Position numbers and translations under genes: made by a program
Source: Octopus vulgaris
Taxonomy: Eukaryota
Assembly: GCA_951406725.2 (NCBI GenBank)
Contig: OX597838.1
Location: 38,316,001-38,380,000, forward strand
Reading direction: 5' to 3'
Length of the DNA stretch: 64,000 nucleotides
Part shown: positions 19,892-58,057 of the stretch, one piece after another
Layout: each line of letters opens with the position of its first letter
Numbering within the stretch: position 1 is the stretch's first letter
Notes under the pieces: generated by a model
Told to the model about the DNA's origin: nothing
What the model saw: only the letters and a program-made list of their open reading frames with translations
Database searches by the model: none

Positions 19892-20942
<1,051 letters not shown>

Positions 20943-25568: not shown

Positions 25569-27139
25569 CCATCACGGCAAATCTATTTTTGCTATTTTTC
25601 GCCTTGAGCGATGTTTCATAGTTTGATAATGCGGTAAAATGGCCGCAACGCTCATTCGCAATTCCCGATCCGTTCCACCATAATAACGTAATACTCATTC
25701 AAAGAATATTAGGGAATGGAGGATATATATATATATATATATACAGTCACATATAAATGTAGCTACATATAAATGCAGACATCTGTGCATGCTTATACGT
25801 CTGGACGTATATATTTACATAGATAACTATTTATTTATGCATATATATTTAAATATATATATATATATAAACACACGCATCTACATATATATATGAATGT
25901 ACATCTATACATATATATATATATATGCATATATATATATATATATATATATATACATGTTTTAAATATAAGTATATCCATCAATAAGTATATATACACT
26001 TTATGCATGTTTGTGTGCGCATATGAATATACAGATAAATGTATATATGTATATGTTTATATATATATATATAAACGTATATATATATATGTATACATAT
26101 ATGTATGTATACATATATATGTATATATACATATGTATATATATATATATATGTGTGTGTGTGTATATATATATATATGTACAAATATATATATACTACA
26201 TATTACAAAAGTGTATATCTGAATATATGCATTTATACATACGTATACATATATATAAAACGTACGTTTATATATATATATGTATAGGTATGTATAAATA
26301 ATATAAACACACACACGCACACACACATATACACACATATATACATACCTGTATACATATACCTATATACATATATTTATATATATATACATAGGTGTGA
26401 GCATATACATATGAAGACATGTATATTTTCTTTTATTAGCTCAGAATACTAAAACAGTTACTCAAGTGCCTACTTTTCCGTGCTAAGGCATTTATCGCAC
26501 CGGCCATCGAAAAAAAAGACGAAGACTCGGTCATAGAATAATAACAGAACTTTCTAAAATGGTCTAAAAATAATGTCTCTATGGCTAATATAAATATTAG
26601 AGACATCGCCATTATGCTTTGATTTCTTTGACTTTCTCTCCACTGTAGAATCAAACGTATATATTGCATGCTTATACATACATACGTAAGTGCATATATA
26701 TACATGTATATATATATATGTGTGTGTGTATATATATACATACTCATACTGCGCGTAGATATACATATATGTATATGTGTGTGTATATAAATATGAGTAT
26801 TTTTATACTTATATACGTTTAAATATATATGTACCTAAACATATATATCTAAATATATGGAAAAATATATATACATCTGAAAATATGCTTAAATATGTAT
26901 AATATATATGTGTGTGTGTATGTATGTAGATATACATATATATATTACATATATCTACATATACGTATATATATACATACAAATATATACATGTACATAT
27001 ATATATATATATATGTATACATTTTGATATATGTATGGATACATACACACACACATATATATTATACATTTTTATACATATTTTCATATATATATATATA
27101 TATTTATACATATATTTTGATATATTTACGTATATATAG

Positions 27140-27170
<31 letters not shown>

Positions 27171-27471
27171 CTACATAAGTATAAAATACGTATATTTATA
27201 TGCACACACATATGCATATATGTATGTTTACGTGTATATGTGCGTGTATAAATATCGTGTATGTATATTTACCGTCTCCTGCTTATGAATATGCATGTAT
27301 AATTTTTTTAAATGTATATAGCACACATCATATCAATATCTCACTGAATGCACCACAGTAGGAGCATCTCAACACAGATATAGATATATGAGTATACACA
27401 GACACACATGAATAAGCACACACACACACACATAAACACACACACAGACACGCTCTCATACACACATATGT

Positions 27472-27503
<32 letters not shown>

Positions 27504-28065
27504 GATTATAATAAAGGGTTAATTGCAACAAGTTGCTCAAAACCACATACCGAACATATTAGAAATAGCAGCCAAATAGGTCACCATTACTACTACTAGA
27601 AAAATAAGTCTCCACAAACAAACATTATTTGTAACCCGTATATGGTAAAGAGAAAGAAGACAACGAAATACCAGCCTATTTGGATTAATTATGGACGAAT
27701 TCGCTTCTGGATTAGAATCGAAAGTTTATTTCTTATAAAGTTTATTTCTTATAAAAATAAGAAAAATAGTGTGGAGCGACTGACCTCCCTTGTTCGAAGG
27801 TTATATGGATACAGTTTGTGTATCAAATAGCTAACTTAAGGCGATGGCCTCATGGAGCTAATAAGCGGACAGCTTTTTTCTTATTTTTATAAGAATGCCA
27901 TATTAGTATGGCGATAACTATTATTTTCCGGGAACGCTGCCGCTGTTCTCTTTTAGAGAGACTTAGTTATTTTAATATTTCTATTATTGAAAACAAGTGG
28001 ATGTATTCCACCGAAACTAGGTAAATAAAACCATCGAACAGAGATTGTCGGAAGCGACACCTACT

Positions 28066-28125
28066 GGCTGGCTACGCTGCATTGAAAAGGGGCAATACTC
28101 CGAAACGCGTCTGTAGCTGCCGGTC
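28066..28125 (+). ncRNA. Type I hammerhead ribozyme, U3-A8 core variant (copy 1)
   Basis: GCTGCA-TTGAAAA-GGGG(CAATA)CTCC-GAAA-CGCG-TC-TGTAGC, stem I extended by GGCTGGC/GCCGGTC; predicted cut after 28111. Confidence 0.82.
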
Positions 28126-28427
28126 AAGTAGTGTGGAGCGACTGACCTCCCTTGTTCGAAGGTTATATGGATACAGTTTGTGTATCAAATAGCTAACTTA
28201 AGGCGATGGCCTCATGGAGCTAATAAGCGGACAGCTTTTTTCTTATTTTTATAAGAATGCCATATTAGTATGGCGATAACTATTATTTTCCGGGAACGCT
28301 GCCGCTGTTCTCTTTTAGAGAGACTTAGTTATTTTAATATTTCTATTATTGAAAACAAGTGGATGTATTCCACCGAAACTAGGTAAATAAAACCATCGAA
28401 CAGAGATTGTCGGAAGCGACACCTACT

Positions 28428-28487
28428 GGCTGGCTACGCTGCATTGAAAAGGGGCAATACTCCGAAACGCGTCTGTAGCTGCCGGTC
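28428..28487 (+). ncRNA. Type I hammerhead ribozyme, U3-A8 core variant (copy 2)
   Basis: Identical to copy 1 at +362; predicted cut after 28473. Confidence 0.82.
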
Positions 28488-28645
28488 AAGTAGTGTGGAG
28501 CGACTGACCTCCCTTGTTCGAAGGTTATATGGATACAGTTTGTGTATCAAATAGCTAACTTAAGGCGATGGCCTCATGGAGCTAATAAGCGGACAGCTTT
28601 TTTCTTATTTTTATAAGAATGCCATATTAGTATGGCGATAACTAT

Positions 28646-28697
<52 letters not shown>

Positions 28698-29444
28698 TTA
28701 TATATATATATGTATGTATATATATATGCATATATATATTTGTGTGTGTATGTGTGTGCATGTATATATATATATATATAATTGAAAAATATCGTTATAA
28801 GTATAAGGTACAAATATACTATAAAATAATTATAGAAAAATGGAGGAGGAAAAAAGGTGTTGAATCAAAATTAGATTTTATACATAAGAGGATTCAATAC
28901 ATACGCGCTTCAAAGGACAATACAAATATGTAAGAAAAAAATTATAATCATAGTAATTATAATTAAATTTATGCATTGTCGTTCTCATCAGTGTGAGAAA
29001 GTTTTTTTTTATAGAGATAGATAGGTAGCTAGATATATGCATACACGCACACACATATATATGTATATATATGTATATATATTCCAAACGTATCTTAATG
29101 TAATCCTTGTATTGTTCTTTGTATACCGGATTGTTTTCGATACAAATTATGTAAATTGCAGAATTATATATTTATATATATTTTGTAATTTTGATTTTGC
29201 TTGGGAAATTAAACAATTGTTGGTGAATATGTTAATTAATTAATATAGTAATTTGTATCCATTTGATCCCCCCCCTTTTCAAACCTGATAATAATGTTTG
29301 ACATTGTATGATATTTTATGTGATACATCCATTGAAGTAATATCTCTTCAATATATAACTTAAATGATTATATCTTGGATAAATTATCACTTATGAGAGG
29401 TTTAAATGTCCTCATTGGGACTATATATATTTATATATATAGAT

Positions 29445-29575
29445 ATAAATACAAACTGGGACAAGAACGCAACACATTTAGAAGACGATGCAAGAAACAC
29501 GGACGGTACATTCTAAGCCTTCAATCTTCAGTCAAGAACCGGATCATCCTCGCAATTTCGGCTGATTAATCTTTT
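29445..29575 (-). mobile_element. Dispersed repeat fragment, probably a Penelope-type terminal repeat; homologous to 47320-47440 (+)
   Basis: Shared AAGATTAATCA.CCGAAATTGCGAGGATGATCCGGTTCTTGACTGAAGAT; abuts microsatellite. Confidence 0.6.
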
Positions 29576-29584
29576 ATATATATA

Positions 29585-29740
29585 GGCACGGGAATGGCTG
29601 TGTGGTAAGTAGCTTGCATACCAACCACATGGTCCCGGGTTCAGTCCCACTGCGTGGCACCTTGGGCAAGTGTCTTCTACTTGCCGACCAAAGCCTTGTG
29701 AGTGGATTTGGTAGACGGAAACTGAGAAAAGCCCGTCGTA

Positions 29741-29780
<40 letters not shown>

Positions 29781-29999
29781 CGTGTGTGTTTGTGTGTCTG
29801 TGTTTGTCCCCCTAGGATTGCTTGACAGCCGATGCTGGTGTGTTTATTCCCCGTCACTTAGCGGTTCGGCAAAAGAGACCGATAGAATAAGTACTGGGCT
29901 GACAAAGAATAAGTCCCGGGTCGAGTTGCTCGATTAAAGGTGGTGCTCCAGCATGGCCGCAGTCAAATGACTGAAACAAGTGAAAGAGTAAAGAGTAAA

Positions 30000-30001
<2 letters not shown>
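29585..30001 (+). mobile_element. SINE family A, full length
   Basis: Colinear with 5541-5975. Confidence 0.92.
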
Positions 30002-57050: not shown

Positions 57051-57112
<62 letters not shown>

Positions 57113-58047
57113 TGTCAATAATAAAAGGGTAAAATTAATTAATTAGTAATTAATAATTTTACCAAGTAGTGTTCAGTATGTAAAAAGACCATTTACGGTA
57201 TATTTAAAACATTACGTTATATAATTAGGGTTCAGTAAAATAATTTACTTTACCACACACTGAACTTTTAGAAATAGCAGCCAAAGAATTTAGCTATTTA
57301 CTCTACTATAAGAAAAGTTTCCCAGATATACGTGAATTGTTTCTGAGTATACATTGTCTGGGAGACTTTTCTTATAGTAGAATAAATAGCTAAATTCTTT
57401 GGCTGCTATTTCTAAAAGTTCAGTGTGTGGTAAAGTAAATTATTTTACTGAACCCTAATTATATAACGTAATGTTTTAAACATACCGTAAATGGTCTTTT
57501 TACATACTGAACACTACTTGGTAAAATTATTAATTACTAATTAATTAATTAGTAATTAATAATTTTACCCTTATTATTATTGACAATATAATTCTTTCCC
57601 TGATCCGTCTGTAGGAATTTGTTGCTCTATAACTCACGTGGGTGGACGGGGAAGGATGCAAAGCCTCATTCGTACGTTTTGAATTCGTTAGTATTGGTGG
57701 TCGAAGGTGGTTCGTCTGAGATTACTCAAATCAGACGGGTATGTTCGATTTTTAGTGTTCTCAAATTTAAAATTTACGAAATCTTGGGCTAATGACAGGA
57801 ATGTTGATATAGGGATGTATTTCTAGAATCTCTATATCTAACTAACCCAGAAACGGCCTTCTCAAGTAATCGATGTACGTGTGATCCTTCGTTATTTTTC
57901 CCTCTATACCTACGTGAATTGTTTCTGAGGATTCATTGTCTGGCAGACTCTTCTTATTGTAAAGGAAATAGCTAAATTCTTTGGCTGCTATTTCTAAAAG
58001 TTCGGTGTGTGGTAAAGTAAATTATTTTTTGCTGAACCCTAATTATA
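57113..58047 (+). mobile_element. Non-coding element: inverted arm of about 215 bp plus about 1.2 copies of a 582-bp unit with a degenerate HHR (57783-57866), in (TA)n
   Basis: 57113-57326 is the reverse complement of about 57356-57585; TACGTGAATTGTTTCTGAG at 57329 and 57911; CTTGGG-CTAATGA-...-GAAA-CGGCC-TT-CTCAAG. Confidence 0.8.
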
Positions 58048-58057
58048 TATACATATA

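Follow-up and report, generated by a model that had tools for sequence, protein, structure and literature searches.

A young retrozyme family in Octopus vulgaris with insertion scars of the Penelope type

Metazoan non-LTR retrozymes, as described in the main text of PMC7229834, are non-coding tandem units of 150–450 bp (350–390 bp in mussel), each with a type I hammerhead ribozyme and a self-paired monomer. The octopus family presented here is alike in all of this, and its one-pair helix III with a palindromic tetraloop is the same as in HHR_Amex1 of the axolotl, a ribozyme that needs the dimer to cut well. That study proposed Penelope elements as the mobilisers, as is done here for the octopus family. 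The U3-A8 core and the two-armed (TA)n insertions with two fixed ends are where the octopus family differs; the word 'inverted' is absent from that main text. Circles have been shown for those retrozymes, whereas the octopus circle is deduced from sequence.

For the route by which animal retrozymes return to DNA, Penelope enzymes and circular templates have been proposed from co-occurrence (PMC7229834; bioRxiv 10.64898/2026.07.22.740005). The latter study, in its available text, covers mainly vertebrates and proposes both Penelope origin and Penelope mobilisation from co-occurrence and pLTR similarity, with insertion ends not analysed. In the octopus family, by contrast, the evidence comes from insertion scars and there is no detectable pLTR homology.

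Penelope elements carry a truncated copy in inverted orientation and a tail that is often confined to one end (PMC8557442). A Penelope protein has been found to cleave the two strands and extend each of them, with internal starts at two sites bounding the tail (PMC11167929). As described in parts of these two sources, the elements have an inverted pLTR and a 30–40-bp tail, whereas the octopus unit encodes no protein, its tail is 63 nt and both its arms can be multimeric. The octopus family ends also carry TA-compatible microhomology, unlike those of the elements compared.

The U3-A8 core was published earlier for the Cercyon Penelope elements of Schistosoma, which share the U3-A8 covariation and the Penelope link with the octopus family (PMC4209133). 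Their motifs, as far as presented there, are mostly single, heterogeneous and minimal, whereas the octopus hammerhead has a canonical layout and is fixed in a spreading tandem family.

A very young array of a dispersed family

The window is the whole 64,000-nucleotide stretch of octopus DNA that was analysed. The array and its immediate surroundings contain the following features.

27484–27502, no strand: (TA)n microsatellite beside the 3′ end of the family C arm
27503–27745, minus strand: arm of family C, a non-coding tandem family, from hammerhead to short 3′ end; its U3-A8 hammerhead is damaged here
27746–27766, minus strand: 21-bp inverted piece of the unit (unit 109–129) at the inner junction
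27767–28651, plus strand: tandem array of 2.44 identical 362-bp non-coding units, the right arm of the insertion
27925–27987, plus strand: 63-nt 'tail' between the short (~158) and long (~221) start sites, internal here and repeated at 28287–28349
28112–28473, plus strand: predicted 362-nt monomer from double cleavage, which in the folding model takes a rod-and-branch shape as a circle
28645–28651, plus strand: outer 3′ end at the 'short' start site (unit 155–162, CTATTAT motif), one of the two fixed family ends
28652–28693, no strand: (TA)n microsatellite, the right-hand target

The tandem-repeat analysis of the window gives exact periodicity at 27767–28651, with a period of 362, 2.44 copies and 100% matches. 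The first two units are the same base for base, and the 161-nt third piece matches too. In six-frame translation of the dimer, judged by eye, no stop-free stretch exceeds ~55 codons. The period, identity and translation thus agree with the first-pass annotation, which had described 2.44 identical 362-bp units without ORF ending in (TA)n. That (TA)n is, however, the insertion target and not a tail of the array. As a circle, the monomer folds to −118.9 kcal/mol versus −82.4 ± 5.6 for dinucleotide shuffles, none of the 60 being as stable (z ~ −6.6).

The same annotation had also attached meaning to the array start 17 nt past a cut site. This start is uninformative, since the inner ends are scattered in the family and the cut is not enriched among them (5 versus 3.9 expected at unit 344–350). 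The informative end of the array is the right one, a fixed reverse-transcription start site. Missed on the left side were the 21-bp inverted piece and the minus-strand arm of a second hammerhead family. The window array is a right arm begun at the short site, and where an arm from the long site would be expected there are the inverted piece and then 243 bp of family C.

Family C (the window arm and L185–L203) is a non-coding tandem family with a unit of ~560 nt, its own U3-A8 hammerhead with a 10-nt palindromic helix III, and two fixed ends ~100 nt apart; its fixed end lies in (TA)n and a first look gave 1525 candidates. Among 121 loci, the direct junction with family C is seen only at the window locus, and the best other copy of its C arm is 95% identical. 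Co-insertion is hence less likely than the joining of an older C copy through a deletion or a template switch. The junction between family C and the array is bridged in no sequencing run examined. Elsewhere in the window, a relative of family C, 74–76% alike, forms an older insertion with two arms at 57110–58050. Its arms meet head to head at ~57345, both ends lie in (TA)n, and a decayed U3-A8 hammerhead is found inside it near 57805–57865. SINE-like repeats, presumably similar to octopus SINEs, occupy 29590–29990.

A search for other copies, suggested with the first-pass annotation, was productive across the genome (2.8 Gb, 227 contigs). A 21-mer taken from the unit has 770 exact matches and its reversed control 0. 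The copies sit on many contigs with different flanks. We parsed 121 loci, drawn from best hits and position-ordered pattern hits out of probably several hundred. Their identity to the window unit is at least 99% in 64, 95–99% in 36 and <95% in 21. The tandem arrangement is kept across subfamilies ~20% apart, and the longest arrays reach 10.6 units. The window array is one very young copy of this dispersed non-coding family.

These in silico data uphold the retrozyme identity that had been proposed, by the non-coding tandem units, a type I hammerhead per unit, the dispersed young copies and the self-paired monomer. The window family is a real, currently spreading non-LTR retrozyme. Its description is absent from the literature searched, outside which lie most subscription papers and the supplements with possible cephalopod examples. 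The 24 sequencing runs examined, 20 of them with the stretch, include none recorded as RNA. Contigs from four runs, RNA by guess, cover parts of the unit, and a 392-nt contig among them (362+30, a closed assembly cycle) fits a circle or a tandem equally.

The unit lacks an RT and GIY-YIG reading frame. Penelope coding remnants occur in 3/121 loci and none of them continues the unit, so the element is non-autonomous. Alternatively, an autonomous Penelope element yet to be found might have given rise to the units, which would then be its truncated terminal repeats (pLTRs). Xenopus retrozymes and pLTRs are related, according to the available text of bioRxiv 10.64898/2026.07.22.740005, and the scoring of GIY-YIG candidates here covered 150 of 6136. 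The octopus units, however, succeed one another without a reading frame, and the only remnant abutting a unit (L091) is frameshifted and cut in mid-endonuclease. We regard such a pLTR origin as very improbable.

A few other loci deserve mention. At L043, a long direct duplication of host sequence, of which ~60 bp can be seen, flanks the insertion in place of the two (TA)n tracts. A distant relative of the unit, 77% alike over 43 nt at unit 52–94 and ending in (TA)n, occurs at L149 (3′ flank) and L188 and suggests a wider superfamily. The motif ATCAGT stands ~58 nt upstream of U1 and most U2 genes in this genome. It is also present at ~unit 280 in older subfamilies and absent from the window's subfamily, and the start that it implies is near unit 338, not 22. 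A newt precedent for an snRNA-type promoter appears in part of PMC2220036.

The U3-A8 hammerhead

Each full unit has one hammerhead with U and A at core positions 3 and 8.

28061–28131, plus strand: type I hammerhead 1 with extended stem I; core UUGAAAA at 28082–28088, palindrome at 28105–28110, predicted cut after 28111
28423–28493, plus strand: type I hammerhead 2, identical to hammerhead 1; predicted cut after 28473

In hammerhead 1, stem I pairs 28076–28081 with 28112–28117 and stem II pairs 28089–28092 with 28098–28101, together with GAAA, the palindrome ACGCGU and C17 at 28111; hammerhead 2 is the same shifted by 362. The layout consists of a 6-bp helix I, a 4-bp helix II, a one-pair helix III with the palindromic tetraloop, and an extended stem I. 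The extra base between positions 9 and 10.1 is absent, A9 directly preceding the 4-bp stem II. This is the canonical metazoan type I layout and not the minimal form of the Penelope-like elements (PLEs), which has that base (PMC4209133). Thus, where the palindromic stem III had been likened to Penelope 'minimal' hammerheads, the palindrome and the one-pair helix III stand but the minimal form does not.

A relaxed hammerhead scan of the whole window has three matches, the two array hammerheads and an unrelated one at 20560. The latter (20560–20640, plus strand) is a hammerhead-like motif with a canonical CUGAAGA and a long stem II insert. The Rfam hammerhead models, put forward earlier as a check, left the array hammerhead undetected, as at E up to 5 or 10 none is among the 75 matches in 26500–30000 and 27990–28200 has 0 matches. 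Two further candidates were rejected. A second hammerhead-like motif at 27987–28030 has an irregular core, lacks GAAA in sister family B and keeps only its hairpin. A canonical-core relative with the same palindrome has two genome matches, both unrelated to the unit. The U3-A8 hammerhead pattern matches the genome 4955 times versus 570 for a reversed control, and the first 100 of these matches are mainly the unit's non-coding clade and Penelope elements.

Covariation was examined in 18 units from subfamilies ~80–100% alike, with the structure taken from one of the aligned sequences. Paired cells amount to 95.9%, and 10/59 proposed pairs are changed on both sides. Slid controls have 0–2 such double-sided changes, and 3/500 shuffles score as high, in a test that is inflated by related sequences. 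Among the double-sided changes are pairs of stem I, of its extension, of stem II and of the palindrome centre, where GC becomes AU (ACGCGU versus ACAUGU). Stems outside the ribozyme covary too. U3-A8 is retained in 17/18 units while core position 7 varies among A, C and T. With this retention, the covarying structure and the core conserved among genomic copies, the earlier proposal of U3-A8 as a compensatory core variant gains support in silico.

The unconstrained minimum free energy fold of 28055–28495 is a double hammerhead of −157.9 kcal/mol with both cores open, and two forced monomers reach −138.4, or 19.5 higher. In silico, this bears out the dimeric action and the cut positions 28111 and 28473 that had been predicted, the lowest-energy fold being the double hammerhead that places the cuts there. 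By the folding and covariation models, the ribozyme is real as a structure, and the array hammerheads are predicted to cleave themselves at these sites. In vitro, just 1 of 9 Xenopus retrozyme dimers cut, as given in the available text of bioRxiv 10.64898/2026.07.22.740005.

Insertion scars and their template

Two arms lie head to head with their 3′ ends outward in 87 of the 121 loci, while 32 parse as one arm and 2 as another layout. The outer ends fall at two places, unit 150–162 (short) and 215–222 (long), both on CTATTAT. (TA)n adjoins 181/192 canonical ends, and target-site duplications are unreadable in it. In the two-armed loci, the ends pair as short and long in 72, short and short in 2, long and long in 0, and with one other end in 13. 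The short-long excess, 72/74 where classifiable, has P ~ 1e-19 against 50:50 and is seen also in the position-ordered subset of 77 loci (38 versus 2). Such near-strict pairing differs from the Penelope reaction in vitro, for which the portion of PMC11167929 consulted gives no strand difference in start site.

An inverted arm, two 3′ ends bounding a tail and a microsatellite target are all features of PLE mobilisation and all present here. The paired short and long ends at unit ~158 and ~221 are the Penelope 'tail' scar. The window family is very probably a Penelope-mobilised non-coding retroelement. A 361-bp sister family, B (L154–L183), is ~80% identical to the unit, with copies 95–98% alike, 2724 candidates and the same two ends. 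All 10 of its classifiable two-armed loci are short and long, among 29 parsed in which one arm was long by selection and two look like duplicates.

By another reading, the array would be a satellite at the level of DNA, or an artefact of the assembly, and its hammerhead a chance look-alike. This reading would fit the 100% identical units and the lack of matches to the Rfam hammerhead models. At the level of the family it is largely refuted by the many contigs with different flanks, the fixed paired ends, the (TA)n targeting, the covariation and the double-hammerhead fold, and we give it hardly any credence.

The units of one insertion are more alike than those of different loci. Units diverge by 0.43% inside an arm, by 0.42% from one arm of an insertion to the other and by 1.55% from locus to locus. 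Among carrier loci, 111A is uniform in 21/21 and 202A in 20/21. As to variants private to one of the 121 sampled loci, 19 are shared by every unit that covers the position (6 of them in both arms), 135 are in one unit only and 4 are partial. Mixed loci also exist, namely 333C in 9/38 carriers (a C run, partly alignment), L261 at three sites and the composite L069.

The arms run past the first cut site in 120/161 cases and both exceed one unit in 27/87 loci. Of the cut-site crossings, 240/241 are unchanged and no indel occurs at unit 340–351. These seamless crossings and the unit-uniform variants are consistent with rolling-circle copying, as the first-pass annotation had suggested. The variants common to both arms and the seamless passage of the cut site point to one monomer as template, probably a circle. 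A monomer circle accounts most simply for the uniform variants, the long arms and the seamless crossings together, and we judge a circular monomer template to be probable.

One alternative is linear monomers cut by the hammerhead, with the reverse transcriptase jumping from a 5′ end to the next monomer's 3′ end. This gives a one-unit bottleneck too, and the 7/202 inner ends at unit 347–351 are slightly above the ~3 expected. However, jumps sit poorly with the 240/241 unchanged, indel-free crossings, and the end excess at 344–350 is not significant (5 versus 3.9). Linear jumping therefore appears quite improbable.

The inner junctions (n=69) overlap by 1–15 nt in 51, are blunt in 6 and gapped in 12. 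Inner ends are enriched at unit 20–33 (26 versus 7.8 expected), which in the window is 27786–27799, on the 3′ side of a long stem containing a TTCGAA palindrome. This hot spot could be a stall, microhomology or a transcription start, the last being the 5′ end of a linear transcript.

The hot spot bears on a second alternative, in which the same Penelope-dependent element is copied from uncut linear read-through RNA, as one molecule or as two from one source locus, and the hammerhead acts rarely or is a passenger. In vitro, an anole Penelope element dispensed with its hammerhead for insertion, used uncut RNA as the main substrate and started at the same sites on both strands (PMC11167929, in part). 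Arrays of up to 10.6 units are possible sources, two RNAs could explain the different family of the window's left arm, and the furthest-reaching arm ends at unit 20–33 in 10/16 loci with an end there. In the other 6/16, however, the partner arm goes 268–1627 nt further, so unit 20–33 does not mark where a linear RNA common to both arms ended. Moreover, variants fixed across both arms' units require a one-unit bottleneck. Arrays copied from linear RNA could only shorten, yet tandems persist across subfamilies 20% apart, and the hammerhead covaries. We consider the uncut linear template, also in the form of two read-through molecules from a uniform source, unlikely, and the monomer circle remains our preferred template.

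A candidate helper and a model of mobilisation

The GIY-YIG search found several Penelope families among the 150 candidates scored. The candidate helper is a young Neptune-like family with many intact 781-codon frames that encode RT, a CxxxxCxxC linker and GIY-YIG; this linker indicates the Neptune or Nematis clade (PMC8557442, in part). Its RT has a Pfam E of 1e-6, just under the curated cut-off, and 16 copies chosen for their intact frames are at a median 99.3% alike. It targets (TA)n and has two 3′ ends ~35 nt apart, of which the long one also ends in CTATTAT, and 2/2 two-armed loci are short and long. Its hammerhead, UUGAUAA...GAAACAUGU, is U3-A8 and resembles that of family B.

The helper resembles the unit in having a U3-A8 core, a palindrome of the same type and an end at CTATTAT. 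By BLAST, the unit has no similarity to the repeats of the Neptune-like element in loci L101–L152, the one match being a sister non-coding family. The helper is therefore the best candidate and not a proven partner, and on balance we lean towards it as the helper of the 362-bp retrozyme. An 80% relative of the unit at L119 was rejected as a terminal repeat of the helper because it lies on the other strand, 1.2 kb away, is absent from other helper copies and belongs to family B. The Neptune-like element also has an upstream 479-codon frame (L134:281-1720 and other copies), which has no Pfam match and overlaps the start of the RT frame.

From the observed family, ends, target, within-insertion uniformity and covarying RNA structure, we infer the steps from transcription to joining as follows. 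Two units would be transcribed by read-through. The weak helix III would form only between two hammerheads, so dimers would cut and a monomer with a single hammerhead would not. The excised monomer would be ligated to a circle by the host, as in mussel and axolotl retrozymes. The helper, likely the Neptune-like family with its intact frame, would cut both (TA)n strands, and the two 3′ ends would share one RNA as template, priming at ~158 in one case and at ~221 in the other. Both cDNAs would then roll over the sealed cut site, stop variably and join head to head via short microhomology.

In this model, the 362-nt monomer is excised by tandem U3-A8 hammerheads, circularised and copied by a Penelope-like RT-endonuclease onto both ends of the cut (TA)n; its probability as a whole is, in our estimate, about two in three. 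A more specific version, somewhat short of even odds, is that an RT-endonuclease dimer holds one circular RNA at two sites 63 nt apart, one per break end, for twin simultaneous rolling-circle reverse transcription.

In summary, the retrozyme class, the U3-A8 core and the tail are each already known, so the octopus family extends known biology and is no new kind. Its youth makes a count of its insertion scars feasible. The scars give exact predictions for the return of retrozymes into DNA, namely two start sites, one per arm, one template and a seamless passage of the cut site. A candidate intact helper is in the same genome, and a natural, covarying U3-A8 hammerhead is available for assay. The same scars bear on the origin of the Penelope tail and inverted repeats. 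If the twin priming is true, it would be obligatory and asymmetric, with the tail and the inverted repeats as its scar. The U3-A8 hammerhead, working only as a dimer, would then serve as a switch that makes the circles yet spares them.
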